NCBI GenBank assembly: GCA_026770705.1
Contig: JANJGN010000016.1
Location: 86,800,001 to 86,864,000, forward strand
DNA from: Isurus oxyrinchus
Lineage: Eukaryota
Reading direction: 5' to 3'
DNA: 64,000 nucleotides
Shown: positions 9,001 to 64,000 of the stretch, one piece after another
How the letters are laid out: every line of letters begins with the position of its first letter
How positions within the stretch are numbered: the stretch's first letter is position 1
Notes under the pieces: model-generated
What the model saw: the letters and a program-made list of their open reading frames with translations, nothing else
Databases searched by the model: none
What the model was told of the DNA's origin: nothing
Made by a program: the position numbers and the translations under genes

Positions 9001-9500
9001 CACAATCCAGTCTGTGTACTCAGGTACATCACACTTCACAATCCAGTCTGTGTACTCAGGTACATCACACTTCACAATCCAAACTGTGTACTCAGGTACA
9101 TCACACTTCACAATCCAAACTGTGTACTCAGGTACATCACACTTCACAATCCAGTCTGTGTACTCACTTACCTCACACTTCACCATCCAGTCTGTGTTGT
9201 CAGGTACATCACACTTCACAATCCAGTCTCTGTACTCAGGTACATCACACTTCACAATCCAGTCTGTGTACTCAGGTACATCACACTTCACAATCCAGTC
9301 TGTGTACTCAGGTACATCACACTTCACAATCCTGTCTCTGTACTCAGGTACATCACATTTTATAATCCAGTCTCTGTACTCAGGTACATCACATTTCACA
9401 ATCCATTCTGTGTACTCAGGTACATCACACTTCACATTCCAGTCTGTGTAGTCAGGTACACCACACTTCACAATCCAGTCTGTGTACTCAGGTACACCAC
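1..9500. repeat. 36-bp tandem satellite (consensus CACTTCACAATCCAGTCTGTGTACTCAGGTACATCA), ~260 copies, runs off the left edge
   Basis: Directly visible 36-bp periodicity. The ORF track shows 12-aa repeats in several frames. A 756-bp higher-order period is present at ~6.4-9 kb. Confidence 0.98.
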
Positions 9501-11525: not shown

Positions 11526-11843
11526 GTAGACGAGATCACGTGTAAAGTAGCTGATGCTAAATACTATTCAGAGATAACGTGTAGAAGAGATCACATGTAA
11601 AGTAGCTGATGCTAAATACTACTTAGAGAACACGTGTAGAAGAGATCATGTGTAAACTATCTGTGCTAAATACTATTCTGAGATCACGTGTAGAAGAGAT
11701 CACGTGTTAAGTAACTGATGCAAAATACTGTTCAGAGATCAGGTGTAGAAGTGATCATGTGTAGAAGAGATTATGTGTAAGATAGCTGAAGCTAAATACT
11801 ATTCAGAGATCAGGTATAGAAGAGATCATGTGTAACCTATATG
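11526..11843 (-). repeat. Inverted 318-bp block of the 55-bp satellite
   Basis: Its reverse complement matches 21043-21360, including diagnostic variants. Confidence 0.93.
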
Positions 11844-11933
11844 TGTACACCCGTATGGTGTGTTCAAGGTACAGAGACAGGAGCAGCAGTCATCCAGCTT
11901 GACCTGCCAGAAGCACAAACTCACATCTGAGAC

Positions 11934-20900: not shown

Positions 20901-23900
20901 GAATAGTATTTAGCATCAGCAACTTTACTCGTGATCTCTTCAACACAATATCTCTGACTAGTATTTAACTTCAGCTATCTTACACATGATGTCTTCTACA
21001 CGTGATCACTTCTACACCTAATCTCTGAATAGTATTTAACATCATATAGGTTACACATGATCTCTTCTATACCTGATCTCTGAATAGTATTTAGCTTCAG
21101 CTATCTTACACATAATCTCTTCTACACATGATCACTTCTACACCTGATCTCTGAACAGTATTTTGCATCAGTTACTTAACACGTGATCTCTTCTACACGT
21201 GATCTCAGAATAGTATTTAGCACAGATAGTTTACACATGATCTCTTCTACACGTGTTCTCTAAGTAGTATTTAGCATCAGCTACTTTACATGTGATCTCT
21301 TCTACACGTTATCTCTGAATAGTATTTAGCATCAGCTACTTTACACGTGATCTCGTCTACACATGATCTCTGAATAGTATTTAGCACAGATAGATTACAC
21401 GTGATCTCTTCTACACGTGATCTCTCAATAGTATTTAGCATCAGTTACTTTACACGTGATCTCTTCTACACATGATCTCTGAATAGTATTAGCATCAGCT
21501 ACTTTACACGTGATCTCTTCTATATGTGATCTCTGAATAGTATTTTGCTTCAGCTAGTTTACACGTGATCTCTTCTACACGTTATCACTGAATAGTATTT
21601 AGCATCATATAGTTTACACATGATCTCTTCTACACCTGATCTCTGAATAGTATTTAGCTTCAGCTAGTTTACACATGATCTCTTCTACACGTGATCTCTG
21701 TATAGTATTTAGCATCATATAGTTTACACATGATCTCTTCTACACGTGATCTCTGAATAGTATTTTGCTTCAGCTAGTTTACACATGATCTCTTCTACAC
21801 GTTATCACTGAATAGTATTTAGCATCATATAGTTTACACACGATCTCTTCTACACCTGATATCTGAATAGTATTTAGCTTCAGCCAATTTACTCGTGATC
21901 TCTTCCACACAAGATCTCTGAATAGTATTTAGCTTAGCTATCTTACACATAATCTCTTCTACACATGATCTCTTCTGCACCTGATCTCTGAATAGTATTT
22001 TGCATCATCTACTTAACACATGATCTCTTCTACACGTGATCTCTGAATACTATTTAGCATCAGATAGTGTACACGTGATCTCTTCTACATGTGATCTCTG
22101 AATACTATTTAGCATCAGATAGTGTACACGTGATCTCTTCTGCACCTGATCTCTGAATAGTCTTTTGCATCAGCTACTTAACACATGATCTCTTCTACAC
22201 GTGATCTCTGAATAGTACTTAGCAACAGCTTGTTTACACATGATCTCTTCTACATGTGATCTCTGAATAGTATTTTGCATCAACTAATTTACACGTGATA
22301 TCAGAATACTATTTAGCTTCAGCAACATTACTCGTAATCTCTTCAACACAATATCTCTGACTAGTATTTAACTTCAGCTATCTTACACATGATCTCTTCT
22401 ACAAGTGATCACTTCTACACCTGATCTCTGAATAGTATTTTGCATCAGTTACTTACCACATGATCTCTTCTACACGTGACCTCTGAATATTATTTAGCAC
22501 CAGCTAGTTTACACGTGATCTCTTCTACATGTGATCTCTGAATAGTATTTAGCATCAGCTACTTTACACGTGATCTCTTCTACACGTGATCTCTGAATAG
22601 TATTTAGCATCAGCTACTTTACACATGATTTCATCCACACGTGATCTCTGAATATTATTTAGCAGCAGCGACTTTACACGTGATCTCTTCTACACGTGGT
22701 CACTGAATAGAATTTAGCATTAGTTACTTTACACATGATCTCTTCTACATGTCATTTCTGAATATTATTTAGCATCAGCTTATTTACACGTGATCTCTTC
22801 TACACATGATCTCTGAATATAATTTAGCATCAGCTACATTACACATGATCCTTTCTACACGTGATCTCGGAATAGTATGTAGCATCAGCTAGTTTAGACG
22901 TGAACAATTCTACACATGATATCTGAATACTATTTAGCTTCAGCTTGTTTACACGTGATGTCTTCTACACGTGATCTCTGAATAGTATTTAGCATCAGAT
23001 AGTTTACATGTGATCTCTTCTACACCTGATCACTGAATAGTATTTAGCACCAGCTAGTTTACTAGTGATCTCTTCTACATGTGATCTCCGAATACTATTT
23101 CGCTTCAGCTAGTTTACACGTGATCTCTTCCACACATGATCTCTGAACAGTATTTTGCATCAGCTAGTTTACACGTGATCTCTTCTGCACCTGATCTCTG
23201 AATAACATTTAGCATCAGCTAGTTAACATGATCTCTTCGACACGTGTTCTCAGAATAGTATTTTGCATCAGCTACTTTACACCTGATCTCTTCTACACGT
23301 GATCTATGAATAGTATTTAGCTTCAGTTACTTTGCATGTGATCTCTTCTACACGTGATCTCTGAATAGTATTTAGCATCAGCTAGCTTACATTTGATCTC
23401 TTCTACACGTGATCTCTGCATAGTATTTAGCATCAGCTTGTTTACACATGATCTCTTCTATACATGATCTCTGAATAGTATTTAGCTTCAGTTACTTTAT
23501 ACATGATCTCTTCTACACGTGATCTCTGAATAGTATTTAGCATCAGCTAGCTTACATTTGATCTCTTCTACACGTGATCTCTGCATAGTATTTAGCATCA
23601 GCTTGTTTACACATGATCTCTTCTACATGTGATCTCTGAATAGTATTTAGCATCAGCTAATTTACACGTGATCTCTTCTACACGTGATCTCTGAATAGTA
23701 TTTAGCATCAGCTTGTTTACATGTGATCTCTTCTACACGTGATCTCTGAATAGTATTTAGCATCAGCTAGTTTACACGTGATCTCTTCTGCACGTGATCT
23801 CTGAACAGTATTTAGCATCAGCTACTTTACACGTGATCTCTTCTATACCTGATCTCTGCATAGTATTTAGCTTGTTTTCACGTGATCTCTTCTACACGTG

Positions 23901-26900
23901 ATCTCTGAATAGTGTTTAGCATCAGCTACTTTACACGTGATCTCTTCTACACATGATCTCAGAATAGTATGTAGCATCAGGTAGCTTACACGTGAACAAT
24001 TCTACACGTGATATCTGAATAGTATTTAGCTTCAGCTACTTTACATGTGATCTTTTCTACACTTGATCTCTGAATATAATTTAGCATCAGCTTGTTTACA
24101 CATGATCTCTTCCACACATGATCTCTGAACAGTATTTTGCATCAGCTTGTTTACAGGTGATCTGTTCCACACGTGATCTCTGAACAGTATTTAGCATCAG
24201 CTTGTTTACACATGATCTCTTCTACACGTGATCTCTGAACAGTATTTAGCATCAGCTTGTTTACACGTGATCTCTTCTACACGTGATCTCTGAACAGTAT
24301 TGAGCATCAGCTTGTTTACACATGATCTCTTCTACACGTGATCTCTGAATAGTATTTAGCATCAGCTTGTTTGCACGTGATCTCTTCTACACGTGATATC
24401 GGAATAGTATTTAGCATCAGCAACTCTACTCGTGATCTCTTCAACACAATATCTCTGACTAGAATTTAACTTCAGCTATCTTACACATGATGTCTTCTAC
24501 ACGTGATCACTTCTACACCTAATCTCTGAATAGTATTTAGCATCATATAGGTTACACATGATCTCTTCTATACCTGATCTCTGAACAGTATTTTGCATCA
24601 GTTACTTAACACGTGATCTCTTCTACACGTGATCTCAGAATAATATTTAGCACAGATAGTTTACACGTGATCTCTTCTACACGTGTTCTCTAAGTAGTAT
24701 TTAGCATCAGCTACTTTACACGTGATCTCGTCTACACGTGATCTCTGAATAGTATTTAGCATCAGCTACTTTACACATGATCTCTTCTACACATGATCAC
24801 TTCTACACCTGATCTCTGAACAGTATTTTGCATCAGTTACTTAACACGTGATCTCTTCTACACGTGATCTCAGAATAATATTTAGCACAGATAGTTTATA
24901 CGTGATCTCTTCTACACGTGTTCTCTAAGTAGTATTTAGCATCAGCTACTTTACACGTGATCTCTTCTACACATGATCTCTGAACAGTATTTAGCACAGA
25001 TAGATTACACGTGATCTCTTCTACACGTGTTCTCTAAGTAGTATTTAGCATCAGCTACTTTACACATTATCTCTTCTACACGTGATCTCTGAATAGTATT
25101 TAGCATCATCTAATTTATAAGTGATCTCTTCTACACGTGATCTCTGAATATTATCTAGCATCAGCTACTTTACACGTGATCTCTTCTATATGTGATCTCT
25201 GAATAGTATTTTGCTTCAGCTAGTTTACACGTGATCTCTTCTGCACGTTATCACTGAATAGTATTTAGCATCATATAATTTACACACGATCTCTTCTACA
25301 CCTGATATCTGAATAGTATTTAGCTTCAGCCAATTTATTCGTGATCTCTTCCACAAGAGATCTCTGAATAGTATTTAGTTTAGCTATCTTACACATAATC
25401 TCTTCTACACATGATCTCTTCTGCACCTGATCTCTGAATAGTATTTTGCATCAGCTACTTAACACATGATCTCTTCTACACGTGATCTCTGAATAGTACT
25501 TAGCATCAGCTTGTTTACACATGATCTCTTCTACATGTGATCTCTGAATAGTATTTAGCATCAGCTACTTTACACGTGATCTCTTCTACACGTGATCTCT
25601 GATTGGTATTTAGCATCAGCTTGTTTGCACGTGATCTCTTTACACATGATCTCTGAATATTATCTAGCATCAGCTACTTTACACGTGATCTCTTCTATAT
25701 GAGGTCTCTGAATAGTATTTTGCTTCAGCTAGTTTACACATGATCTCTTCTACACGTGATCTCTGAATAGTATTTAGCATCATATAGTTTACACATGATC
25801 TCTTCTACACGTGATCTCCGAATAGTATTTTGCTTCAGCCAATTTACTCGTGAGCTCTTCCACACGAGATCTCTGAATAGTATTTAGCTTCAGCTATCTT
25901 ACACATAATCTCTTCCACACGTGATCTCTTCTGCACCTGATCTCTGAATAGTATTTTGCATCAGCTACTTAACACATGATCTCTTCTACACGTGATCTCT
26001 GAATAGTACTTAGCATCAGCTTGTTTACACATGATCTCTTCTACATGTGATCACTGAATAGTATTTAGCATCAGCTTGTTTACACATGATCTCTTCTACA
26101 TGTGATCTCTGAATAGTATTTTGCATCAGCTAATTTCCACGTGATCTCTTCTACACGTGATATCGGAATACTATTTAGCTTCAGCAACATTACTCGTGAT
26201 CTCTTCAACACAATATATCTGACTAGTATTTAACATCAGCTATCTTACACATGATCTCTTCTACAAGTGATCACTTCTACACCTGATCTCTGAATAGTAT
26301 TTTGCATCAGTTACTTAACACATGATCTCTTCTACACGTGACCTCTGAATATTATTTAGCATCAGCTAGTTTACACGTGATCACTTCTACATGTGATCTC
26401 TGAATAGTATTTAGCATCATCTAATTTATAAGTGATCTCTTCTACACGTCATCTCTGAATATTATCTAGCATCAGCTACTTTACACGTGATCTCTTCTAC
26501 ACGTGATCTCTGAATAGTATTTAGCATCAGCTACTTTACACGTGATCTCTTCTACACGTGATCTCTGAAAACTATTTAGCATCAGCTACTTTACACGTGA
26601 TCTCTTCTCCACATGATCTCTGAAAACTATTTAGCATCATCTAGTTTTCACATGACCTCTTCTACATGTGATCTCTTAAGAGTATTTAGCATCAGCTTGT
26701 TTACATGTGATCTCTTCTACACGTGATCTCTGAATAGTATTTAGCATCAGCTAATTTACATGTGATATCTTCTACACGAGATCTCTGAATAGTATTTAGC
26801 ACCAGATAGTTTACACATGATCTCTTCTACACGTGATCACTGAATAGACTTTAGCATCAGCTGTTTTACACGTGATCTCTTCTGCACGTGTTGTCTGAAT

Positions 26901-29900
26901 AGTATTTAGCATCTGCGACTTTACACGTGATCTCTTCTACACGTGATCTATGAATAGTATTAGCTTCAGCTAATTTACACATGATCTCTTGTACACGTGA
27001 TCTCTGAATAGTATTTAGCCTCAGCTAATTTACACGTGATCTCTTCTACACGTGATCTCTGATTGGTATTTAGCATCAGCTTGTTTGCACGTGATCTCTT
27101 CTAAACGTGATCTCAGAATGGAATTTAGCATCAGCTACATTACACGTGATCTCTTCTAAACGTGATCTCAGAATAGAATTTAGCATCAGCTACATTACAC
27201 GTGATCTCTTCTACATGTGATCTGTGAATAGTATTTAGCATCAGCTACTTTACACGTGATCTCTTCTACACATGATCTCGGAATTGCATTTAACACCAGC
27301 TACTTTACGTGTGATCTCTTCCACATGTGATCTGTGAATAGTATTTAGCATCTGTTACTTTACACGTGATCTCTTCTACACATGATCTCAGAATAGCATT
27401 TAGCACCAGCTACTTTACACGTGATCTCTTCTACACATGATCTCTGAATAGTATTTAGCATCAGCTACTTTACACGTGATCCCTTCTACACGTGATCTCT
27501 TCTACATGTGATCTCTGAATAGTATTTAGCATCATCTAATTTATAAGTGATCTCTTCTACATGTCATCTCTGAATATTATCTAGCATCAGCTACTTTACA
27601 CGTGATCTCTTCTACACGTGATCTCTGAATAGTATTTAGCATCAGCTACTTTACACGTGATCTCTTGTACACGTGATCTCTGAAAACTATTTAGCATCAG
27701 CTACTTTACACGTGATCTCTTCTCCACATGATCTCTGAAAACTATTTAGCATCATCTAGTTTTCACATGACCTCTTCTACATGTGATCTCTTAAGAGTAT
27801 TTAGCATCAGCTTGTTTACATGTGATCTCTTCTACACGTGATCTCTGAATAGTATTTAGCATCAGCTAATTTACATGTGATATCTTCTACACGAGATCTC
27901 TGAATAGTATTTAGCACCAGATAGTTTACACATGATCTCTTCTACACGTGATCACTGAATAGACTTTAGCATCAGCTGTTTTACACGTGATCTCTTCTGC
28001 ACGTGTTGTCTGAATAGTATTTAGCATCTGCGACTTTACACGTGATCTCTTCTACACGTGATCTATGAATAGTATTAGCTTCAGCTAATTTACACATGAT
28101 CTCTTCTACACGTGATCTCTGAATAGTATTTAGCCTCAGCTAATTTACACGTGATCTCTTCTACATGTGATCTCTGAATAGTATTTAGCATCAGCTACTT
28201 TACACGTGATCTCTTCTACACGTGATCTCTGATTGGTATTTAGCATCAGCTTGTTTGCACGTGATCTCTTCTAAACGTGATCTCAGAATGGAATTTAGCA
28301 TCAGCTACATTACACGTGATCTCTTCTAAACGTGATCTCAGAATAGAATTTAGCATCAGCTACATTACACGTGATCTCTTCTACATGTGATCTGTGAATA
28401 GTATTTAGCATCAGCTACTTTACACGTGATCTCTTCTACACATGATCTCGGAATTGCATTTAACACCAGCTACTTTACGCGTGATCTCTTCCACATGTGA
28501 TCTGTGATTAGTATTTAGCATCTGTTACTTTACACGTGATCTCTTCTACACATGATCTCAGAATAGCATTTAGCACCAGCTACTTTACACGTGATCTCTT
28601 CTACACATGATCTCTGAATAGTATTTAGCATCAGCTACTTTACACGTGATCCCTTCTACACGTGATCACTGAATAGAATTTAGCATCAGTTACTTTACAC
28701 ATGATCTCTTCTACACGTGATCTCTGAATAGTATTTAGCATCAGCTACTTTACACATGATCTCTTCTACACATGATCTCTGAATAGTATTTAGCACCAGC
28801 TACTTTACACATGATCTCTTCTACATGTGATCTCGGAATAGTATTTAGCATCAGCTTGTTTACACATGATCTCTTCTACATGTGATCTCTGAATAGTATT
28901 TAGCATCAGCTAATTTATATGTGATCTCTTCTACACATGATCTCTGAATAGTATTTATCATCAGCTTGTTTACATGTGATCTCTTCTACACATGATCTCT
29001 GAATAGTATTTAGCATCATATAGGTTACACATGATCTCTTCTACATGTGATCTCGGAATATATTTAGCATCAGCTACTTTACACATGATCTCTTCTACAC
29101 GTGATCTCTGAATAGTATTTAGCATCATCTAATTTATACGTGATCTCTTCTACATGTCATCTCTGAATATTATCTAGCATCAGCTACTTTACACGTGATC
29201 TCTTCTATATGTGATCTCTGCATAGTGTTTAGCAACAACTACTATACACATGATCTCTTCTACACGTGATCTCTTCTACACGTGATCTCTGAATAGTATT
29301 TTGCCTCAACTCATTTACACGTGATCTCTTCTACAAATGATCTCTGAATAGTATTTAGCATCAGCTTGTTTACATGTGATCTCTTCTATACCTGATCTCT
29401 GAATAGTATTTAGCATCATATAGGTTACACATGATCTCTTCTATACCTGATCTCTGAATAGTATTTAGTTTAGCTATCTTACACATGATCTCTTCTGCAC
29501 CTGATCTCTGAATAGTATTTTGCATCATCTGCTTAACACATGATCTCTTCTACACGTGATCTCTGAATAGTATTTAGCATCAGCTTGTTTACACATGATC
29601 TCTTCTACATGTGATCTCTGAATAGTATTTAGCATCAGCTAATTTACACGTGATCTCTTCTACACATGATCTCTGAATAGTATTTATCATCAGCTTGTTT
29701 ACATGTGATCTCTTCTACATGTGATCTCTGAATAGTATTTAGCTTCAGCTAATTTACACATGATCTCTTCTACACGTGTTCTCTGAATAGTATTTAGCAT
29801 CAGCTACTTTACACATGATCTCTTCTACACGTGTTCTCTGAATAGTATTTAGCATCAGCTACTTTACACATGATCTCTTCTACACGTGTTCTCTGAATAG

Positions 29901-31030
29901 TATTTAGCATCAGCTACTTTACACATGATCTCTTCTATACCTGATCTCTGAATAGTATTTAGCATCAGCTACTTTACACATGATCTCTTCTACACGTGAT
30001 CTCTGAATGGTATTTAGCATCAGCTACTTTACACATGATCTCTTCTACACGTGATCTCTGAATAGTATTTAGCATCAGCTACTTTACACGTGATCTCTTC
30101 TAAACGTGATCTCAGAATAGAATTTAGCATCAGCTACATTACACGTGATCTCTTCTACACATGATCTCGGAATTGAATTTAACACCAGCTACTTTACACG
30201 TGATCTCTTCCACATGTGATCTGTGAATAGTATTTAGCATCAGTTACTTTACACGTGATCCCTTCTACACATGATCTCGGAATAGTATTTAGCACCAGCT
30301 ACTTTACACGTGATCTCTTGTACACGTGATCTCTGAATAGTATTTAGCATCAGCTACTTTACACGTGATCCCTTCTACATGTGATCACTGAATAGAATTT
30401 AGCATCAGTTACTTTATACATGATCTCTTCTAAACGTGATCTCTGAATAGAATTTAGCATCAGCTACTTTACACATGATCTCTTCTACATGTGATCTCGG
30501 AATAGTATTTAGCATCAGCTACTTTACACGTGATCTCTTCTACACGTGATCTCTGAATAGTATTTAGCATCAGTTACTTTACACGTGATCTCTTCTACAT
30601 GTGATCTCTGAATAGTATTTAGCATCAGCTACTTTACACGTGATCTCTTCTACACGTGATCTCTGAATAGTATTTAGCATCAGCTTGTTTACATGTGATC
30701 TCTTCTACATGTCATCTCCGAATATTATTTAGCTTCGGCTAGTTTACACATGATCTCTTCTATACGTGATCTCTGAATATTATTTTGTATCAGTTGGTTT
30801 CACACGTGATCTCTTCTAAATGTGATCTCTGAATAGTATTTAGCATCAGATAGTTTACACGTGATCTCTTCTACACGTGATCTCTTCTACATGTGATCTC
30901 GGAATAGTATTTAGCATCAGCTACTTTACATGTGATCTCTTCTACATGTGATCTCTGAATAGTATTTAGCATCAGCTTGTTTACACGTGATCTCTTCTAC
31001 ACGTGATCTCTGAATAGTATTTAGTATCCA
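11934..31030. repeat. 55-bp tandem satellite (TGAATAGTATTTAGCATCAGCTACTTTACACGTGATCTCTTCTACACGTGATCTC), ~345 copies
   Basis: 55-bp periodicity with an internal 16-bp sub-repeat carrying CACGTG. No ORFs in the track. Internal kb-scale duplications. Confidence 0.98.
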
Positions 31031-39899: not shown

Positions 39900-41045
39900 A
39901 TGTACAGACTGGATTGTGAAATGTGAGGTACCTGAGTACACAGAGTGGATTGTGAAGTGTGATGTACGTGAGTACACAGACTACATTGTGAAGTGTGATG
40001 TACCTGAGTACACAGACTGGATTGTGAAGTGTGATGTACGTGAGTACACAGACTGCATTGTGAAGTGTGATGTACCTGAGTATACAGACTGGATTGTGAA
40101 ATGTGACGTACCTGTGTACACAGACTGGAATGTGATGTGTGATGTACCTGAGTACACAGATTGGATTGTGAAGTGTGATGTACCTGAGTACACAGACTGG
40201 ATTGTGAAATGTGACGTACCTGTGTACACAGACTGGATTGTTAAGTGTGATGTACCTGAGTACATAGACTGGATTGTTAAGTGTGATGTACCAGAGTACA
40301 CAGAATGGATTGTTAAGTGTGATGTACCTGAGTACACAGACTGGATTGTGAAGTGTGGTGTATCTGAGTACACAGAGTAGCTTGTGAAGTGTGATTTACC
40401 AGAGTACACAGACTAGATTGTGAAGTGTGGTGCACCTGAGTACACAGACTGGATTGTGAAGTGTGATGTACCTGAGTAGACAGCCTGGATTGTGAAGTGT
40501 GATGTACCTGAGTACACAGACTGGATTGTGAAGTGTGATGTACCTGAGTACAGAGACTGGATTGTGAAGTATGATGCTCCTGAGTACACAGACTGGATTG
40601 TGAAATGTGATGTACCTGAGTACACAGACTGGATTGTGAAATGTGATGTACCTGAGTACACAGACTGGATTGTGAAGTGTGATGTACCTGAGTACACAGA
40701 CTGGATTGTGAAGCGTGATGTACCTGAGTACACAAACTGGATTGTGAAGTGTGTTGTACCTGAGTACACAGACTGGATTGTGAAATGTGATGTACCTGAG
40801 TACACAGACTGGATTGTGAAGTGTGTTGTACCTGAGTACACAGACTGGATTTTGAAGTGTGATGTACCTGAGTACACAGACTGGATTGTGAAGTGTGATG
40901 TACCTGAGTACACAGACTGGATTTTGAAGTGTGATGTACCTGAGTACACAGACTGGATTGTGAAGTGTGATGTACCTGAGTACTCAGACTGGATTTTGAA
41001 GTGTGTTGTACCTGAGTACACAGACTGGACTGTGAAATGTAACAT
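39900..41045 (-). repeat. Second array of the 36-bp satellite, in inverted orientation (~32 copies)
   Basis: The unit TGATGTACCTGAGTACACAGACTGGATTGTGAAGTG is the reverse complement of the 1-9500 unit. Confidence 0.97.
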
Positions 41046-41529
41046 CACCAGTAAGTAACCATTGTTAAACAATATTAATGACATTTTGCTGAGCAACTTA
41101 TTAATAAAATTTTATTGCAGCTTTTTGCAGATCTTTATATATTGGCACAATAATCTGGTCTGCATATATTACTGTATATAGATGACATATATTTGTAAAA
41201 CATATTTTAAATCATATAATATGATACATATGACTTATTACTCAGGCTTCCCTATATATTACTCAGCAGGATATATCATCACTAACATTTTAACTATGTA
41301 GTGTCACAGCTCTGATAACCATCTTAATCTTATGTATCTTTCATTCTCTCTGTGTTTACTGACACAATTCTCTGGTTTGTGGGTTCCCCTATGTACAAAC
41401 CATCTGTGATGTCCTTGGAGTAATGGCTCAAACTGACTTCATCAAACTGACATTCCAAATAGGCCGACATTGTTCATAACGGGATTATCTGTAATTGAGT
41501 CAGATCTGAGCGTCAGCAGCTAAACTAGA

Positions 41530-43330
41530 GAGAGGGATGGAGGTCAATTAGGGGGAGGGGTGAAAGTCAAATAGAGAAGGGTTGGAGGTCAGATAGACAG
41601 AGAGATGGAGGTCAGGTAGAGAAAGGGATAGAGTTCAGACAGAGGGTTGGAGGTCAGATAGAGAGAGTGATGGAGGTCAGATAGACAGAGAGATGGAGGT
41701 TAGGTAGAGAAAGGGATATATATCAGATAGAGGGATGGAGTCATATAGAGAGAGGGGTGGAGGTCAGATAGAGAGAGGAATGAAGGGCTGAAATGCAGAG
41801 TGATGGTGGTCAGATGGAGCGAGGGATGGAGGTCAGGTGGACAGATGTCTGGAGCTCAGGTTGAGAGAGGGGTGGATGTCAGATAGGGATAGGTGTGGAG
41901 AGCAGGAAGAGAGAGAGATGTAGGTCAGATAGAGAGAGGGATGGAGTCAGATAGAGAGAGGGATGGAGGTCTGAAACGCAGAGGGATGGAGTCAGATAGA
42001 GAGAAGGATGGAGTCAGTTAGAGAGGGGGATGAAGGTCAGATAGAGAGAGGGATGGAGCTCAGATAGAGAGAGGGATGGAGTCAGATAGAGAGAAGGATA
42101 GAGGGCAGATAGAGAGAGGGATGGAGTCAGATAGAGAGAGGGATGGAGTCAGATAGAGAGAAGGATAGAGGGCAGATAGAGAGAGGGATGGAGGTCTGTA
42201 ATGCAGAGTGATGGAGTTCAGATAGAGAGAGGGATGGAGTCAGATAGAGAGAGGGATGGAGTCAGATAGAGAGAGGGATGGAGGTCTGATAGAGAGAGGG
42301 ATGGAGTCAGATAGAGAGAGGGAGGGAGTCAGATAGAGAGAGGGATGGAGTCAGGTAGAGAGAGAGATGGAGTCAGATAGAGAGAGGGATGGAGTCAGAT
42401 AGAGAGAGGGATGGAGTCAGATAGAGAGAGGGATGGAGGTCAGATAGAGAGAGGGATGGAGTCAGATAGAGAGAGGGATGGAGTCAGGTAGAGAGAGGGA
42501 TGAAGGTCAGGTAGCGAGAGGGATGGAGGTCAGATAGAGAGAGGGATGGAGTCAGGTAGAGAGAGGGATGGAGTCAGATAGAGAGAGGGATGGAGTCAGA
42601 TAGAGAGAGGTATGGAGTCAGACAGAGAGAGGGATGGAGGTCAGATAGAGAGAGGGATGGAGTCAGATAGAGAGAGGGATGGAGTCAGATAGAGAGAGGG
42701 ATGGAGGTCTGAAATGCAGAGTGATGGAGGTCAGATGGAGCGAGGGATGCGGTCAGGTGGAGAGATGGCTGGAGGTCAGGTAGAGAGAGGGATGGAGTCA
42801 GATAGAGAGAGGGATGGAGTCAGATAGAGAGAGGGATGGAGGTCTGAAACGCAGAGTGATGGAGGTCAGATGGAGCGAGGGATGCGTTCAGGTGGAGAGA
42901 TGGCTGGAGGTCAGGTAGAGAGAGGGGTGGAGGTCAGAAGGGAGAGGGGTGGAGGACAGGTAGAGAGAGAGATGGAGGTCAGTTAGAGGGATGGCTGGAG
43001 TACAGATAGAGAGTAGGCTGGAGATCAGAAAGAGAGAAGAGTAGAGGTCAGATGAAGAGAGGGATGGAGGTTGGAGAGAAAGACGGATGGAGGTTAGAGA
43101 GAAAGACGGATGGAAGTCAGACAGAGAGAGGAATGAAGATCAGATAGAGAGAGGGATAGAGGTTAGAACGAGAGACAAATGGAGCTCAGAGCGAGAGAGG
43201 GATGGAGGTTGGATAGAGAGTGGGATAGAGGTCAGATAACTACAGGGATGGAGGTCAGAGAGAGAGAGATGGAGGTCAGATAGAGAGAGGGATGGAGAGC
43301 TGTTCAGGAGAGAGATGGAGCTCGGATACA
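41530..43330. repeat. Purine-rich ~22-23-bp minisatellite (GAGAGGGATGGAGTCAGATAGA)
   Basis: Direct tandem copies, degenerate at the edges. Confidence 0.92.
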
Positions 43331-43349
43331 CCAGGGGTGAAGCTCAGTG

Positions 43350-44168
43350 AGGTGTGTATCTGAGAGGAAGGTCGGACACTCAGAGGGAGGGATGGAGATC
43401 AGGGAGGTGTGTATCTGAGAGGAAGTTCGGTCACTCAGGGAGAGGGATGGTGATCAGGGAGGTGTGTATCTGAGAGGAAGTTCGGTCACTCAGGGAGAGG
43501 GATGGAGATCAGGGAGGTGTGTATCTGAGAGGAAGTTCGGTCACTCAGGGAGAGGGATGGTGATCAGGGAGGTGTGTATCTGAGAGGAAGTTCGGTCACT
43601 CAGGGAGAGGGATGGAGATCAGGGAGGTATGTATCTGAGAGGAAGTTCGGTCACTCAGGGAGAGGGATGGTGATCAGGGAGGTGTGTATCTGAGAGGAAG
43701 GTGGGACAATCAGAAGGAGGGATGGAGATCAGGGAGATGCGTATTTGAGAGGAAGGTCGGACACTCAGAGGGAGGGATGGAGATCAGGGAGGTGTGTATC
43801 AGAGAGGAAGGTCGGACACTCAGAAGGAGGGATGGAGATCAGGGAGATGCGTATTTGAGAGGAAGGTCGGACACTCAGAGGGAGGGATGGAGATCAGGGA
43901 GGTGTGTATCTGAGAGGAAGGTCGGACACTCAGAGGGAGGGATGGAGATCAGGGAGGTGTGTATCTGAGAGGAAGGTCGGACACTCAGAGGGAGGGATGG
44001 AGATCAGGGAGGTGTCTAACTCAGAGGAAGGTCGGACACTCAGAGGGGGGATGGAGATCAGGGAAGTGTGTATCTGAGAGGAAGGTCGGACACTCAGAGG
44101 GAGGGATGGAGATCAGGGAGGTGTGTATCTGAGAGGAAGGTCGGACACTCAGAGGGAGGGATGGAGAT
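43350..44168. repeat. 55-bp minisatellite (GGTGTGTATCTGAGAGGAAG...GGGATGGAGATCAGGGA), ~15 copies; unrelated to the large 55-bp satellite
   Basis: Copies at 43461, 43516, 43571 etc. Confidence 0.92.
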
Positions 44169-44494
44169 GAGGTGGAACGAGGTTACTGTCCATTCTCTCC
44201 ACCTGTGCTGCAGTTTGGTGCAGACTAACCTGTTGCTCTGTGGATCCCTGGTTAATGCAATCCCCTTGCTCCCTGCCTTGCAGCCTCTCTCAATCCACAC
44301 CACCACTTCTTCCCTGTAGGGAATGGGATTGAGCCAGTAACCCAGAGGAGATGAGTTCAAATCCCAGGATGGGAAATAGTGAAATGGAATTGGATAAATC
44401 TGATCATTTGTGTTCTGGCTGCAGAAATTGTCCATAAATCCTGCTGGATTGCTGTAAAACACAAGGTACTCAGTGAGGGAAGCTGCCGGTCTCA

Positions 44495-50796: not shown

Positions 50797-50893
50797 GAGG
50801 AAGTGAAAGGTGCTGACGTGGTTCTCTCTGGGTGATACCATTTACATACTGAGGAACAGCCAGTGAGACTCTGACAGGCTGCAGCTGTATAAA
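50797..50893 (+). promoter_or_regulatory. Ig light-chain V promoter: ETS-IRF composite GAGGAAGTGAAA (50797-50808), TGACGT (50814-50819), octamer variant ATTTACAT (50840-50847), E-box CAGCTG (50882-50887), TATAAA (50888-50893)
   Basis: Octamer-TATA order and position (~60-115 bp upstream of the leader ATG) match IgL V promoters. The octamer has one mismatch to ATTTGCAT. Confidence 0.8.
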
Positions 50894-50953: not shown

Positions 50954-51002
50954 ATGATTTCAGCCATCCAGCTGATCTGGCCTCTGGCATTCTGCATCGC
51001 AG
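50954..51002 (+). CDS. IGKV: Ig kappa leader exon (MISAIQLIWPLAFCIA + G)
   Basis: Kozak ACCATG, hydrophobic signal peptide, phase-1 donor AG/GTAC at 51003. Splices in frame to the V exon (G-I-S-G). Confidence 0.93.
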
Positions 51003-51188: not shown

Positions 51189-51483
51189 GTATCAGTGGGG
51201 AAATCACCATGAAACAGCCTCCCCTGGTGTCAGTGAGCCTGGGCCAGACCACCACCATCACCTGTACGGCCAGTCAGTCTGTAAGCAGCTATATGAATTG
51301 GTACCAGCAGCGAGAAGGACAGAAACCGACTCTCCTGATCTATGGGGCAACAAACCGATTCACAGGAACATCCGAGCGATTCACCGGCAGTGGATCTGGC
51401 ACTCAATTCACCCTGACAATCAGCAATGTACAGAATGAGGATGTCGCTGATTATTACTGTCAGCAACGGCAAAGCTTCCCCTA
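51189..51483 (+). CDS. IGKV: Ig kappa-type (shark NS4/type III-like) V exon, unrearranged and open
   Basis: Acceptor CCCCTCAG at 51181-51188. Reads [22 protein letters not shown]...[15 protein letters not shown]...[35 protein letters not shown] with conserved Cys/Trp/Cys. Followed by a 12-RSS. Confidence 0.97.
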
Positions 51484-51511
51484 CACAGTGATACAGAGCC
51501 TGACAAAAACC
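51484..51511 (+). other. V recombination signal sequence, 12-bp spacer
   Basis: CACAGTG-atacagagcctg-ACAAAAACC; perfect heptamer and nonamer. Confidence 0.98.
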
Positions 51512-51516
51512 TCAAT

Positions 51517-53285
51517 ACACACAGCACCACCTCCTGTACTGACACATCCCACGGTTATATAGAATATATAATAATGGGCACACAGCACCACCTCCTGTAC
51601 TGACCCATCCCCCAGTTATATAGAATATATAATAATGGACACACAGCACCACCTCCTGTACTGACACATCCCACAGTTATATAGAATATATAATAATGGA
51701 CACACAGTCCCACCTCCTGTACTGACACATCCCACAGTTATATAGAATATATAATAATGGACACACAATCCCACCTCCTGTACTGACACATCCCACAGTT
51801 ATATAGAATATATAATAATGGACACACAATCCAAACTTCCTGTACTGACACATCCCACGGTTATATAGAATATATAATAATGGACACACAGTCCCACCTC
51901 CTGTACTGACACATCCCACAGTTATATAGAATATATAATAATGGACACACAGCACGACCTCCTGTACTGACACATCCCACAGTTATATAGAATATATAAT
52001 AATGGACACACTGTCCCACCTCCTGTACTGACACATCCCACAGTTATATAGAATATATAATAATGGACACACAGCACCATCTCCTGAACTGACACATCCC
52101 ACAGTTATATAGAATATATAATAATGGACACACAGTCCCACCTCATGTACTGACACATCCCACAGTTATATAGAATATATAATAATGGACACACAGCACC
52201 ATCTCCTGTACTGACAAATCCCATAGTTATATAGAATATATAATAATGGACACACAGCACCACCTCCTAACTGACACATCCCACAGTTATATAGAATATA
52301 CAATAATGGACACACAGTCCCACCTCCTGTACTGACACATCCCACAGTTATATAGAATATATAATAATGGACACACAGTCCCACCTCCTGTACTGACACA
52401 TCCCACAGTTATATAGAATATATAATAATGGACACACAATCCCACCTCCTGTACTGACACATCCCACAGTTATATAGAATATATAATAATGGACACACAA
52501 TCCAAACCTCCTGTACTGACACATCCCACGGTTATATAGAATATATAATAATGGACACACAGTCCCACCTCCTGTACTGACACATCCCACAGTTATATAG
52601 AATATATAATAATGGACACACAGCACGACCTCCTGTACTGACACATCCCATAGTTATATAGAATATATAATAATGGACACACTGTCCCACCTCCTGTACT
52701 GACACATCCCACAGTTATATAGAATATATAATAATGGACACAAAGCACCATCTCCTGAACTGACACATCCCACAGTTATATAGAATATATAATAATGGAC
52801 ACACAGTCCCACCTCATGTACTGACACATCCCACAGTTATATAGAATATATAATAATGGACACACAGCACCATCTCCTGTACTGACAAATCCCATAGTTA
52901 TATAGAATATATAATAATGGACACACAGCACCACCTCCTAACTGACACATCCCACAGTTATATAGAATATATAATAACGGACAGACCGTCCCAGCTCCTG
53001 TACTGATACATCCCACAGTTATATAGAATATATAATAATGGACACACAGTCCCACCTCCTAACTGACACATCCCACAGTTATATAGAATATATAATAATG
53101 GACACACAGTCCCACCTCCTGTACTGACACATCCCACAGTTATATAGAATATATAATAATGGACACACACCACCACCTCCTGTACTGACACATCCCACAG
53201 TTACATAGAATATATAATAATGGACACACTGTCCCACCTCCTGTACTGACACATCCCACAGTTATATAGAATATATAATAATGGT
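51517..53285. repeat. 61-bp minisatellite in the V-J interval, ~29 copies, with a 671-bp (11-unit) internal duplication
   Basis: Unit GACACACAGTCCCACCTCCTGTACTGACACATCCCACAGTTATATAGAATATATAATAATG. The TCCAAAC variant recurs at 51830 and 52501. Confidence 0.95.
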
Positions 53286-53417
53286 CACTTTACCTCTTAC
53301 CTTACATGTCCACATATGAAGAGCAGCTGAAAGATTTATCATATAAAATTGGGATTCTCAATTCTCCCAACAAAAAAAAGGCATTGAGAGGAAGAGAGAG
53401 GGAAAGAGAGAGTGTTC

Positions 53418-53550
53418 AAGGTGAGTGTGAGTGAGAGACAGAGAGAGGGTGAGAGTGAGTTAAAGGTGAGTGTGAGTGAGAGACAGAGAGAGGGTGAGAG
53501 TGAGTTAAAGGTGAGTGTGAGTGAGAGACAGAGAGAGGGTGAGAGTGACT
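53418..53550. repeat. 45-bp GA-rich tandem repeat x3 immediately upstream of the J RSS
   Basis: AAGGTG starts at 53418, 53463 and 53508. Confidence 0.9.
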
Positions 53551-53569: not shown

Positions 53570-53608
53570 GGTTTTTGTACAGCCCCTGCACTGGAAGCAC
53601 TCAGTGTG
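53570..53608 (-). other. J recombination signal sequence, 23-bp spacer
   Basis: GGTTTTTGT (53570-53578), 23 nt, CAGTGTG (53602-53608; reads CACACTG on the minus strand, CAC intact). The V12/J23 arrangement is kappa-type. Confidence 0.96.
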
Positions 53609-53643
53609 GGTTACGTTCGGTAAAGGAACCAAACTCAGACTGA
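53609..53643 (+). CDS. IGKJ: Ig kappa J segment (VTFGKGTKLRL)
   Basis: FGxGT motif; phase-1 donor A/GTAAGT at 53644. Confidence 0.97.
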
Positions 53644-56460: not shown

Positions 56461-56789
56461 GCAGAGAGAAGTCACCACCCACAGTGACCCTGCTGCCCCC
56501 CTCCCCAGAGGAGGTCAAGACCAAGGGCACTGCCACCCTGGTGTGCCTTGCCAATCACTTCTATCCCGATGAGGTGAAGGTGGAGTGGAAGAAGGACGGT
56601 GCAGCTATTTCGGACGGGGTTCAGACCAGCAACTACCTGCGAGCTTCAGACAGCACCTACAGCGTCAGCAGCCTGCTGACCCTCTCTGGCTCTGGCTGGG
56701 AGTCCAACGCCAGCTTCTCCTGTGTCGTCACCCACGAGAGCCTCTCCTCTCCCCTCAGCAAGAGCATCAGGAGATCAGAATGTGCGTAG
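56461..56789 (+). CDS. IGKC: Ig kappa-type constant exon
   Basis: Acceptor TTCTCTTCCATTTCAG. In frame with J: S-REKSPPTVTLLPPSPEEVKTKGTATLVCLANHFYPDEVKVEWKKDG...STYSVSSLLTL...FSCVVTHESLSSPLSKSIRRSECA*. C1-set Cys/Trp/Cys plus penultimate interchain Cys. Confidence 0.97.
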
Positions 56790-58510: not shown

Positions 58511-61500
58511 GGGGTGGAGGGGTGGGGGTGGGTGATGCCGTGGGTGGAGGTGGAGGGTGATGCCGGGGTTGGGGGCGTGGGTGATGCCGGGGGTGGGGGG
58601 GGGGTGGGTGATGTTGGAGGTTGGGGGTGTGGGTGATGCTGCCGGTGGGAGGGTGAATGATGCCGGGGGTAGCGTGATGGGTGATGCTGGGGTTGAGGTG
58701 CTGGGTGATGCCGGGGGTGGGGGAGAGGGTGATGCCGGGGGTGGGGGTGGGAGTGGGGGACAGGGTGTGGGTGATGCCGGGGGTGGGGCACAGGGTGATG
58801 CCGGGGGTGGGGGTGGGAGTGGAGGACGGGGTGTGGGTGATGCCGGGGGTGGGGGTGGGAGTGGGGGACGGGGTGTGGGTGATGCCGGGGGTGCGGGAGT
58901 GAGTGATGCTGGGGGTGTGGGAGGTGGGTGATGCTGGGGGTGCGGGGTGGTTGATGTCGGCGATAGGGGGGGTGGGTGGTTGATGTTGGGGGTGGCGTGA
59001 TGGGTGATGCTGAGGTAGAGGGGGTGAGTGATGCCAGGGATGGGGGAGTGTTTAATGCCGGAGCCGGAGGGGTGGAGGCCGGGTGGGTGGTAGTGGGTGA
59101 TGCCGGGGTGATGCCGGGGGTGGGGTTTGAGTGATGCCGGGTGTGACGTGATGGGTGATGCCGGGGGTGAGCGGGTGTGTGATGCCGGGGTAGTGGGCGT
59201 GGGTGATGCCGGGGGTGAGGGAGAGGGTAATGCCAGATGTGGGTGTGTGCATGATGCCGGTGGTGGGTGTTGAGTGATGCCGGGGTGGGTGGGTGGGTGA
59301 TGCCGGGGATGAGGCGGTGGGTAATGCCGGGTGTAGCATAATGGGTGATGCCAGGGGTGGGGGCATGGTTGACGCCAGGTGATGCCAGGGGTGGGGGGGT
59401 GGGTGATGCCAGGGTGAAGGGCGTGGATGATGCCTGGGGTAGGGATGGTGGGTGATGCAGGGGGTGGAGAAATGTGTGATGTTCTGGGTGGTGGGGTGGG
59501 TGATGCCGAGCGTGAGGGTGTGTGTGATGCTGAGGGTGGGGGTTGGTTGATGCCTGGAATGGGGGCCTGGGTGATGCAGGGGTGGGAGAGTGAGAAATGC
59601 CAGAGCTGGGGGTTGGGTGGTGCCAGGGCTGGAGGGTGAGGGACCCATGGGTGGGGGATTGGGTGATGCTGGGTTGAGGGAGAGGGTAATGCCGGATGGT
59701 GGGGGGCTGGGAGAAGCCGGGGATGGGGGAGTGTGTGATGCCGGGCGTGACAGGGTGGTGATGCCGGGGTAGGGGGTGAGGGTGATGCCGGAGTGTGGGT
59801 GGGGGTTGTGGGTGATGCCAGTGTTGGCAGTGTGGGTGTTACTGGGGGTGGGGGTGGTGGGTGATGCCGGGGGTGGTGGGGTGGATGATGCCGGGAGTGG
59901 TGGGTGAGGGTAATGCCCGTGTTGGGTGTGTGGGTGTTGCTGGGGGTGAGGGGGCAGGTGATACCGGGGGTGGGGGAATAGGGGATGCCGGGGGTTGGTG
60001 GGCTTGGGTGATGCCGGGCGTGGGGGCGCGGATGATGCCGGGGGTGGGGGTGGGGTTTGTGGGTGATATAAGGGGTGTTGGGGTCGGTGATATCAGGGGT
60101 GTTGGGGTCGGTGATGCCAGTGTTGGGGGTGTGGATGCAGCTGAGGGATGGGCTGGTGGGTGATGCCGGGGGTAGAGGGGGGAGGAGAATGCCGGGGATG
60201 GGGGTTGTGGGTTGTCGGGGGTGGGAAGGATGGTCGATGCCATGGGTGGGGGGTGGGTGATGCCGGGGTTGAGGGGGTGGGTGATGCCTGGGGTGGCGTG
60301 GTAGTCTTTGCCGGCTATGGGAGGGGTGGGTGATGCCATGGTTGAGGTTTGAAGTGATGCCAGGTGTGAAGGGGTGGTTGATGCCTGAGGTGGGGGCGTG
60401 GGTGAGGCCATGGGTGGGGGAGTTGGGTGATGCCGGTGGTGGGCGTGTTGATGATGCAGAGGTTGGGGGTGTGGCTGATGCCATGGTTGGGGGGGTGGGT
60501 GATGCTTGGGATGGGGGTGGTGGGGGAATAGGTGATGTCGAGTGTGGAGGGAGTGGGTGGTGCCGGGGGTGAGGGGGTGAGTGATGCCGGGGGTGAGGGT
60601 GCGGATGTTGCCGTGGGTGGGGTGCCAGGTGATGCCCAAAGTGGGGTGGGTAAAGCCTGCGGTTGGTGATGCCAGGGTTGGGGCCTGCGTGGTGCTGGGT
60701 TTGGGGGGCGTTGTTGATTCCGGGGATGGGGTGAGTGGATGGTGGTGCGGGTGGGGGGGGTGTGGATGATGCCGGGGATGGGAGGGGTGGGTGATGCCAT
60801 GAATGGGGGGGTGGGGGATGCCGTGAGTGGAGGGGTGGGTGATGCTAAGGTTGGGGGTTGATTGATGCCGGGGGTGGGGGGCTGGGTGATGCCGGTGGTG
60901 GGGGTGTGGGTGATGCAGGGGATGGGGTGGTTGGTGATGCCATGGGTGGGGCAGTGGGTAATGCCGGGGGTGGAGGATGTTGGTGATGCCAGGGTTGGGG
61001 GAATAGGTGATGTTGGGGGTGTTGGGATGGGTGATGCCAGGTGTGAGGGGGTGTGTGATGCCGGGGTTGTGGGCGTGAGTGACTCCTGGGGTCGGGTTGG
61101 GCGATGCTGAGGGTGGGGGTTGGCTGATGCCTAGGATGGGGGCCTAGGTGATGCCGGGGGGTGGGGGAATGTGAAATGCCAGAGGTGGGGGTGTGGGTGA
61201 TGCCGGGGCTGGTGGTGTGGGTGATGCCGGGAGCGTGTGATGCCAGTGTTGGCGGTGTGGGTGTTGCTGGGGGTGGGGGTGGTGGGTGATGCCAGGGTTG
61301 GTGGGGTCGATGATGCCGGGAGTGGTGGGTGAGGGTAATGCCCGTGCTGGGGGTGTGGGTGTTGCTGGGGGTGAGGGGGCATGTGATACCGGGGGTGGGG
61401 GAATAGGGGGTGCTGGGGGGGTGGGGGGATTGGATGATGCTGGGAGTGGGGGCTGAGGGACCCATGGGTGGGGGATTGGGTGATGCTCAGTTGAGGGAGT

Positions 61501-64000
61501 GGGTAATGCCGGAGTGTGGGGGGCTGGGTGATGCCGGGGTACGGGGTGTGGGTGATGCTGGGAGTGGGGGGTGTGGGTAATGCTCGTGTTGGGCGTTGGG
61601 TGTTGCTGGAGATGAGGGGGCAGGTGATACCATGGGTGGGAGTGCTGGGTGATGCCGAGAGTGCTGGAGTGGGTGATGCCGGGGGTTGGGGTGGGTGATG
61701 CCGGGGGTGACGTGATGGGTGATGCTGGGGTTGAGGAGGTTGGTGATGCCGGGGTGAAGGGCATGGGTGATGCCTGGGGTAGGGTGGTGGGTGATGCCGG
61801 GTGTGGGATGGTGGGTGATGCCAGGGGTGGTGAATAGGTGATGCCGAGGGTGGGGGGGGTGGGTGATGCCGGGCGTGAGGGGGTGTGTGATGCCGGGGTT
61901 GTGAGCGTGGTTGATGCCTGGGATGGGGGCCTGGGTGATGCCGGGTGTGGGGTGTGGGTGATGCCGTGGGTGGGGGGCCAGTTGATGCCGGGGTGGGGGG
62001 GTGGGTAATACCAGAGGTGGGAGTGTGGGTGATGCCGGTGGTGGAGGTTGGGTGATGCCGTGGGTGGGGGTTGGCTGATGCTGGGAGTGGGGTGGTGGGT
62101 GATGCCGCGGGTGGGGGTTGGCTGATGCTGGGGGTGGAGGTGAGGGACACATGGGTGGGGGGTTGGTTGATGCTGGGGTTGAGGGACTCGGTAATGATGG
62201 AGGTGGGGGTGTGGGTGATGCCGGGGGTGGGGGAGTGGGTGGTGCCGGGAGTGAAGGGGTCGTGATACCGGGGTAGGGAGTGTGGGTGTTGCCATGGGTG
62301 GGGGAGTGGTTGCTGCTGGGGTTACGGTGGTGGTGATGCCGGGTGTAGCATGATGGGTGATGCCAGGGGTGGTTGTGGTGGGTGATGCCGGGGGTGGGGG
62401 CACGGATGTTGCCGTGGGTGGGGTGCCAGGTGGTGTCGAGAGTGGGTAATGCCTGGGGTGGGTGTTGCCAGGGTTGGGGACTGTGTGGTGCTGGGTGTGG
62501 GTGGGGGGTGGTTGATTCCGGAGACGGGTGTATGGATGGTGGTGCAGGTGGGGGGGTGGTGTGGATGATGCCGGGTGTATGGAGGTGGGTGCTGCCGGGG
62601 ATGGTGTGGTAAGTGATGCCATGGGTGGGGTGTGGGCGTTGCAGGGGATAGGGGCGAGTGCGTGATGCCGTGGGTGGGGGGGTGTGGGTGATGCCGGGGG
62701 TGGAGGAGGTTGTTGATGCCGGGGGAGGGGCAATAGGTGATGTCGGGGGTGTTGTGGAGGGTGATGCCAGGCGTCAGGGGGTGTGTGATGCCAGGATTGT
62801 GGGCGTGAGTGATGCCTGGGGTAGGGGTTGGGCGATGCCGAGGGTGGGGGTTGGTTGATGCCTAGGATGGGGGCCTAGGTGATGCCGGGTGTGGGGGAGT
62901 GTGAAATGCCAGAGGTGGGGGTGTGGGTGATGCCGGGGCTGGGGGCCTGTATTATGCCAGGGGTGCGGAAGTGGGTAATACCAGAGCTGGGGGTGTGGGT
63001 GATGCCGGTGGTGGTGGTTGGGTGACGCCACGCGTGGGGTTTGGCTGATGCCGGGGGTGGGGGTGAGTGACCCATGGGTGAGGGGTTGGGTGAAACTGGG
63101 GGTGAGGGAGTGGGTAATGCCGGAGGTGAGGGGCTGGGAGATACCGGGGATGGGGGAGTGGGTGATGCTGGGCATGTGGGGATGGTGATGCCGGGGTAGG
63201 GGTTGTGGGTGATGCCAGGAGTTGGATTGGGGTTTGTGGGTGATGCCGGGGGTGGTGGTGTGGGTGATGCCAGCAGTGGGTGGTGCCATTGTTGGCAGTT
63301 TGGGTGTTGCTGGGAGTGGGGTTGGTGGGTGATGGCGGGTTAGTGGGATGGGTGATGCCCGGAGTGGGGTGTATGGGTGATACCACTGTTGGCAGCGTAG
63401 GTGTTGCTGGGGGTGAGGTGGGAGGTGATACCGGGAGTGGGGGTGCTGGGTGATGCCGTGGTTGGGCAAGTGGGTGATGCTGGGGGTGGGGGAATAGGTG
63501 AAGTTGGGTGTGGGGGGGGTTGGCTGGTGCCGGTGGTGAGGGGGTGGGTGATGCCGGGAGTTAGAGGGAGTGTGATGTCTGGGGTAGGGGGAGGGTAATG
63601 CTGGGGCTGGGTGATGGCAGGGTTGGTGGAGTGGTTGTTGTTGGCAGTAAGGGGGTGGGTGATGCTGGAGGTGGGGGTGGGGGTGGTAGGTGATGCTGGG
63701 TGTGGGTGTTGCTGGCGGTGAGGGTGTGGGTGATGCTAGGGGTGATGCCGGGGGTGGGTGTTGGCACGGTTGGAGGGGTGGGTGATTCTGGGGGTGGGGG
63801 TGGGGGGGGTGGATGATGCCGGGTGTGGGAGACGTGTGATGCTGGGGAGGTGGTTTGTTGCGTGAAGCCGCGGTTGGGGGTAGTTCGTGTTGCCGGGGGT
63901 GATGGGTGTGTGTGATGCCGGGTGTGGGTGATGACGGGGCTTGGGGGGGTTGGTGATGCCGGGGGTGGTGGGGTGGCTGATGCCCGGAGTGGGGGCAGTG
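58510..64000 (+). repeat. G-rich degenerate satellite (core GGGTGATGCCGGGGGTGGGG) with ~1.6-1.8-kb higher-order blocks; runs off the right edge
   Basis: TGATGCC recurs every ~15-30 bp amid G-runs. Diagnostic motifs recur at ~59590/61170/62900 and 60600/62400. Confidence 0.93.

Follow-up and report, generated by a model that had tools for sequence, protein, structure and literature searches.

A copy-number-variable 61-bp minisatellite with cryptic 23-RSS-like units in the V-J interval of kappa light-chain clusters of Isurus oxyrinchus

The question raised by this locus is whether a minisatellite that lies between the two real RSSs of a shark light-chain gene, and is built of units that themselves resemble a 23-RSS, serves V-J rearrangement or only happens to lie within it. 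It arises in a window of 64,000 nucleotides from Isurus oxyrinchus (GenBank assembly GCA_026770705.1, contig JANJGN010000016.1, positions 86,800,001 to 86,864,000, forward strand). About 66% of this window is tandem repeat, of 36-, 55-, 23-, 55-bp and G-rich 24-bp families (1–9500, 11526–31028, 39904–44172 and 58524–64000), with the 36-bp family reappearing inverted at 39904–41040. An earlier note on this DNA had read the minisatellite as an array of decoy or RAG-loading sites, and as a VNTR.

The kappa cassette and its array

The window holds one intact shark-type kappa light-chain cassette, V-J-C, whose V matches antibody light-chain V domains among PDB entries. It is classed as shark kappa by its layout, its leader-intron length and the combination of a V 12-RSS with a J 23-RSS, which we take to be the kappa-type arrangement; the label is therefore layout-based, and not tree-based. 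The octamer variant upstream, one mismatch from the Ig octamer consensus, is identical in 25/25 clusters. The parts of the cassette are:

50840–50847, plus strand: octamer-like promoter motif ATTTACAT
50954–51002, plus strand: leader exon, with a 186-bp intron after it (a 186-nt splice is present in putative RNA contigs)
51189–51483, plus strand: V-kappa exon, frame open
51484–51511, plus strand: V 12-RSS, perfect; together with the 5 nt that follow, a possible 'unit zero' in phase with the array
51517–53284, plus strand: 61-bp minisatellite, 29 units
53285–53384, plus strand: unique spacer of ~99 bp after the array, whole or partial in 24/25 clusters
53385–53548, plus strand: second VNTR, a 45-bp GA-rich repeat, 3.6 copies in the window
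53418, 53463 and 53508: AAG/GTGAGT donors within the 45-bp repeat
53418–53426, plus strand: first splice donor 3' of V; in a paralogous cluster (L053), two putative RNA contigs join the equivalent donor to the C exon
53570–53608, minus strand: J 23-RSS, heptamer CACACTG, perfect nonamer
53609–53643, plus strand: J-kappa segment
56461–56789, plus strand: C-kappa exon, coding part

The array, of 29 units of 61 bp with 92% matches, adjoins the V nonamer, as the earlier note had it, beginning 5 nt past the V 12-RSS. The V heptamer lies 2125 bp from the J coding start, of which 357 bp remain once the array is discounted, in keeping with the proposed inflation of the V-J distance; the supposed baseline of ~350 bp did not hold, being absent from all 25 clusters, none of which is without a unit and the shortest of which has a V-J distance of 553 bp. 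The heptamer-like stretch occupies positions 34–40 of the unit and the nonamer-like stretch positions 3–11 of the next, separated by 23 nt, and the nonamer-like motif arises only at the junction of two units. CAC stands at the heptamer-like start in 25/29 window units, the full CACAGTT is present in 22/29, and CACAGTT is combined with a nonamer of at least 6/9 in 12/29. The statement that most units read CACAGTT followed by ACACAGTCC was too generous, this exact form being found in just 7/29. Four sites of CACAGTT, 23 nt and ACACAATCC, all on the strand that carries the V RSS, were borne out:

51733–51771, plus strand: best cryptic 23-RSS, copy 1 (CACAGTT / ACACAATCC)
51794–51832, plus strand: best cryptic 23-RSS, copy 2 (CACAGTT / ACACAATCC)
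52404–52442, plus strand: best cryptic 23-RSS, copy 3, +671 duplicate
52465–52503, plus strand: best cryptic 23-RSS, copy 4, +671 duplicate
51649–52971, plus strand: higher-order 11-unit (671-bp) duplication inside the array, 3 mismatches in 652 bp

The duplication that links these copies is real, and its copies are non-identical, the mismatches falling across 51649–52300. An 11-unit block duplicated within the window array is what an assembly artefact inflating the array could have produced; however, the blocks differ at 3/652 bases, 183 distinct 61-mers occur and variants are private to each cluster, and such an artefact is very improbable.

The array faces the same way as the V 12-RSS, and the geometry put forward from this orientation is right: by the established 12/23 geometry, pairing of the V 12-RSS with an array unit would invert the segment and remove the V's signal. 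A strong hairpin was considered for the unit and rejected, the fold of two units being no better than that of shuffles (z −0.18).

A VNTR across the kappa locus

Genome-wide, 25 V genes were found at a protein identity of at least 87%, all on C16:85.8–88.5 Mb, and the analysed set consists of all 25 clusters and one orphan array. The clusters (C16:85.79–88.47 Mb; 11 on the plus strand and 14 on the minus) are all split. V and J are present in 25/25, with C inside the fetched stretch in 20; the V frame is open in 25/25, with no frameshift or stop, and the V RSS is consensus in 24/25, the RSSs being near-identical whatever the array length. V differences among the clusters are concentrated in the CDRs. 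Departures in single clusters include a diverged J with an altered FGxG motif and a changed J heptamer (L051), a V heptamer of CACTGTG (L050), and YSC replacing YYC (L040 and L044).

The 61-bp repeat occupies the same V-J position in 25/25 clusters, at 1–70 units per cluster (median 13, total 418). V-J distance spans 553–6070 bp, of which the non-array part accounts for 310–1815 bp, much of it the 45-bp VNTR. That the array is a minisatellite VNTR is thus upheld, by head-to-tail 61-bp units and a 70-fold range of length among paralogues. A 28-letter motif (at most 1 mismatch) gave 344 genome-wide matches, 343 of them in the kappa locus: 331 in the 25 clusters and a further 12 in the orphan array, with 1 elsewhere. 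The repeat is therefore not common at non-Ig loci; it was the opposite finding that the earlier note had named as counting against its reading. Clusters with less than 1% flank difference are up to 14-fold apart in copy number (2 vs 29 units), the median flank divergence among the 25 being 1.7%; copy-number difference is weakly related to flank divergence (rho 0.12, with pairs that are not independent), and a tree of the cluster flanks has 1/22 branches well supported.

A truncated last unit, with the start of the spacer lost, is shared by L034, L042 and L051 (70, 23 and 16 units), and L035 is entirely without the post-array spacer. The 45-bp GA-rich VNTR next to the J RSS differs greatly from one cluster to another and, unlike the 61-mer, is not kappa-specific, since related copies are present on C7, C864, C1163 and C1409. 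The orphan array (L055, C16:85.714–85.717 Mb), of ~16 units, sits on the margin of the kappa locus, where 9.9 kb contain neither leader nor V, J or C, and is split by a ~1.1-kb retroelement-looking insertion; it is probably a decayed cluster.

One V, J and C per cluster, a V 12-RSS with a J 23-RSS, and tens of near-identical clusters also characterise elasmobranch Ig-kappa in the available parts of the accounts of nurse shark NS4 and horned shark type III (PMC2193156, PMC5192425). NS4, as far as the available text of PMC2193156 goes, further shares the 186-bp leader intron, whereas ~10% of its genes are germline-joined, against 0/25 here, and its intervening sequence is nearly uniform at 502–524 bp, against the 553–6070 bp seen here on account of two VNTRs. 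The results and legends of that account make no mention of an interval repeat, and the intervening sequences are not in the available text.

A single ectopic copy lies 33 Mb away, at C16:52.63 Mb (L057), where a 114-bp piece of kappa minisatellite, starting at the cryptic heptamer, sits inside a high-copy repeat. The empty site was found in 12/24 copies of the host repeat, with 11/14 bases in common with the unit; a gapped-pattern search for the empty site gave no match. There is a 4-nt microhomology across the would-be cut, with ~8 target bases lost and no target duplication, and the right end of the insert is AT-rich and re-primed. RAG signal-end insertion is the less probable origin of this one case (n=1), a homeology-primed repair patch accounting for the insert, which by its sequence looks like a templated patch of this kind.

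Likeness to a 23-RSS, its conservation and its predicted use

Likeness was assessed against 20,000 shuffled units, counting a heptamer of at least 6/7 and a nonamer of at least 6/9 at an exact spacer of 12 or 23. Shuffles as RSS-like as the unit made up 0.31% (mononucleotide) and 0.77% (dinucleotide), and with the 15 heptamer-side bases fixed, an equally good nonamer at exactly 23 arose in ~3%. A limit of at most four total mismatches, the filter that flagged strong RSS-like sites in the available part of PMC11153149, was reached by 0.9–1.3% of shuffled units; it is satisfied by 229/418 units, spread over 23/25 clusters, and by 12 sites in the window array vs 2 in total in the window's other 8 repeat regions. 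The 23-RSS likeness of the unit exceeds chance (shuffle P about 0.01), although the test is post hoc. All 12 window sites that pass have a 23-nt spacer and none a 12-nt spacer, and they would thus not pair with J under the 12/23 rule. Units acting as cryptic 12-RSSs that join J were rejected on the same count, the nonamer at spacer 12 scoring 3/9 in 29/29 units, with no site at four mismatches or fewer. The top strand of the array carries 138 CAC and no GTG, and these CACs, convergent with the J RSS, can be set beside the RAG off-targets at CAC in mouse Igk in the available part of Zhang et al. 2024 (PMC11153149).

The columns that make up this likeness are no better kept than the rest of the unit. 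Over 183 distinct 61-mers (38 units of other lengths being excluded), mean divergence is 0.033 for the heptamer, 0.040 for the spacer, 0.041 for the remaining columns and 0.101 for the nonamer; the heptamer does not differ from the rest (P 0.86) and the nonamer is more variable (P 0.009), P values that are rough and overstated because the units have common ancestry. Purifying selection on heptamer and nonamer is not seen in this comparison, and 5/13 distinct indels fall within the 23-nt spacer, equal to the expectation from its length. Because each nonamer comes from the following unit, an interval with one copy lacks it; clusters of 1 and 2 units contain no RSS-like site, yet they are intact. 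Internal unit heads are mostly of the better AGTCC type (242/393), whereas first unit heads, which cannot serve as nonamers, are of the poorer AGCAC/AGCAT type in 24/25 clusters, a contrast that may be the edge effect of a single ancestral change.

How far RAG might use such units can be gauged from published mammalian screens, each available in part. In a 12-RSS screen (PMC9723617) the array's CACAGTTAT scored 0.067 vs 1.144 for CACAGTGAT, 17-fold less, and the real J heptamer plus two bases, CACACTGAG, scored 0.034, below the array's. Among 23-RSS nonamers (PMC12711392, Table S2), ACAAAGTCC is listed at 0.70, ACACAGACC at 0.59 and ACACAATCC at 0.59, with the consensus at 0.90, and 3/10 array nonamers looked up fall in the predicted top 1000; the commonest, ACACAGTCC and ACACAGCAC, are not in that functional list. 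A published RIC of −38.2 for ACACAATCC (PMC12711392) refers to a different heptamer and spacer context. Units with ACACAATCC, ACACAGACC or ACAAAGTCC number 28/418 (~7%), in 8/25 clusters, and 4/29 in the window. The four best window units have a heptamer and a nonamer that appear weakly usable in the mammalian screens. On these values, weak cleavage of the best units is plausible, as predicted from mammalian RAG acting in other sequence contexts.

Four public contig sets, presumed to be RNA and drawn from no more than three samples, were searched for transcribed sequence by alignment at 85% likeness to L053, a two-unit paralogue. Ten joints were listed: 1 leader splice, 7 V-to-J joints and 2 in or next to the 45-bp repeat. 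The V-to-J joints carry non-templated letters, and J-to-C splices are present, in these putative RNA contigs; they are to be read at the level of the kappa family, the window's own V type not being among the joints listed. No joint to a 61-bp unit and no strand change occurs among the ten, a test of low power, since rare variants are lost in contigs, 34 loose ends fall outside the listing and non-productive joints are under-represented in RNA. Two X1 contigs (depth 28.9 and 15.5) traverse the spacer and are joined, from the first AAG/GTGAGT donor of the 45-bp repeat, to the C exon:

53311–53420 (window equivalent of L053:1600–1709), to the C exon at 56461: putative interval-to-C transcript, X1 contigs

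Depth in the RSS bin is 41 (X1) and 33 (X2), with 7 and 0 in the leader-intron bins, and the frame read through past V meets a stop in the first unit. These interval-to-C contigs, from one sample of putative RNA, are likely a sterile L-V-RSS-array-spacer-C transcript of unrearranged clusters. In sharks, V promoters are known to drive sterile transcription of IgL genes that have not rearranged (PMC5192425, available part). One X2 contig has the leader spliced directly to C (L053:937 to the C exon), with V-J skipped.

These observations bear on two functional readings. On the first, the array has been selected as a store of cryptic 23-RSSs that vie with J for pairing with the V 12-RSS and, through inversion, put the cluster out of use. 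Likeness above chance, restriction to the kappa locus, retention in 25/25 clusters and the 28 units with published top-1000 nonamers (ACACAATCC, ACACAGACC, ACAAAGTCC) are in its favour, and RAG-cut cryptic 23-RSSs in satellite DNA provide a precedent (PMC2193808, available part). Against it, the RSS-like columns are unconserved, the nonamer columns least conserved of all; top-class units are present in just 8/25 clusters and missing in 17/25; the 1- and 2-unit clusters without any sites are intact; and, more weakly, 0/10 listed RNA joints change strand. The decoy or RAG-loading array of the earlier note is thus unsupported as a selected feature, and it is improbable that the array has this function or that it caps the number of the 25 clusters that join productively in a given B cell. 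We hold it quite doubtful, likewise, that the VNTR is a copy-number-variable bank of RAG-cleavable 23-RSSs, bred from the V signal and competing with J as an inversional switch-off. Were this true, the odds of productive joining in a given cluster would depend on its VNTR length and unit quality, providing a cis mechanism for light-chain exclusion and a heritable repertoire bias in a 25-cluster locus.

On the second reading, the RSS-likeness is incidental, and array length (V-J 0.55–6 kb), or the AT-rich, transcribed nature of the array, alters rearrangement frequency. The V-J distance does range 11-fold among near-identical clusters, the interval is covered by putative RNA contigs and spliced to C, and the nurse shark retains ~500 bp (PMC2193156, available text). 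However, CDR3 ends in the RNA contigs, from other individuals, match by eye the V types of 2-, 8-, 11-, 12- and 12-or-21-unit clusters, and a copy number that drifts freely between 1 and 70 points to weak selection. A spacer or chromatin rheostat of this sort is unlikely.

Origin of the unit and its place among known systems

With its phase set at the heptamer, the array reads on from the RSS of the V, with 12/15 first bases in agreement (global alignment P 0.003–0.007); beyond the heptamer, 6/8 first spacer bases match the V 12-RSS (P 0.01–0.03), while alignment of the unit tail as a whole to the V RSS past the heptamer falls short of significance (P about 0.2). An AT-rich quasi-palindrome makes up the remainder of the tail (20/29, P 0.014). 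The sequence after the array, tested as a decayed extra unit head, gave no significant result (P 0.20–0.33). Copying from the J 23-RSS (P 0.05–0.19) or from the V 3' end (P 0.89) was unsupported. By this comparison of sequences, which is suggestive only, descent of the unit tail from a duplicated and decayed V 12-RSS is more likely than not, though unproven. The unit could instead be unrelated to any RSS, having arisen by internal duplication of an ACACA-TCCCAC motif together with the quasi-palindrome, with its likeness due to chance on a CA-rich strand. An internal repeat of 11/12 (P 0.02–0.08), the quasi-palindrome itself and the presence of a 6/7 heptamer in 15% of dinucleotide-shuffled units argue for such an origin; the in-register 12/15 match to the adjoining RSS and the matching first spacer bases argue against it, and it is possible, though doubtful.

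The reading that we favour, and consider probable, is that the array is a likely neutral VNTR specific to the kappa locus, whose cryptic 23-RSSs are incidental by-products of tandem duplication and for the most part weak. It draws further support from the second, unrelated VNTR that has expanded within this interval and from the repeat-rich window as a whole. Counted against it are the 229/418 units that pass the four-mismatch filter, the rarity (~3%) of so good a nonamer at 23 in the shuffles with fixed bases, the better heads of internal units and the score of the J heptamer, which lies below that of the array. Its presence, its range of 1–70 copies, its rapid turnover and its junction-only nonamer were all observed directly; for its history, a route in three steps can be proposed. 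Before the clusters multiplied, a stretch from the V 12-RSS heptamer would have been duplicated, the copy decaying such that the heptamer and first spacer bases were kept and the nonamer was lost to the AT-rich quasi-palindrome. Head-to-tail amplification would then have set the next unit's ACACA(G/A)TCC 23 nt behind the heptamer, and unequal exchange or slippage would since have altered the copy number of each cluster separately. Ordinary joining of V to J deletes the entire array. Weak off-target use by RAG is predicted for the best ~7% of units, where an occasional inversion would disable a cluster; this would not constitute a selected role.

An extra 23-RSS that pairs with V-kappa 12-RSSs to give a non-productive product is familiar from the mammalian RS/KDE, which the array resembles in geometry. 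RS/KDE consists of one conserved site lying 3' of C-kappa, and its use removes C; in contrast, the array presents many degenerate, unconserved sites upstream of J, which would act by inversion and are absent from the 10 listed joints. The mouse gamma-satellite is alike in having a tandem unit that holds 23-RSS-like sites (Cowell et al. 2003, PMC2193808, available part). Its 234-bp unit lies outside Ig loci and its cleavage was established by experiment, whereas the kappa array lies between two real RSSs and is known from sequence. No paper describing the 61-bp repeat was found in a literature search that left most subscription journals outside it, and the available parts of PMC2435157, PMC12227049 and PMC12205992 hold no information on it. 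The parts are of known kinds, namely shark kappa miniclusters and satellite-borne cryptic RSSs; their combination in every V-J interval was not found in the literature searched.

For practical purposes, PCR across V-J would under-sample long clusters. More broadly, the array bears on what prevents the dozens of self-contained light-chain clusters of a shark from all rearranging in one B cell. Even if the array is neutral, the locus offers a natural experiment on the effects of V-J distance and cryptic RSS load: its 25 near-identical clusters nearly all share one strong RSS pair, with V-J distance ranging from 0.55 to 6 kb and weak competing 23-RSS-like sites from 0 to 53.
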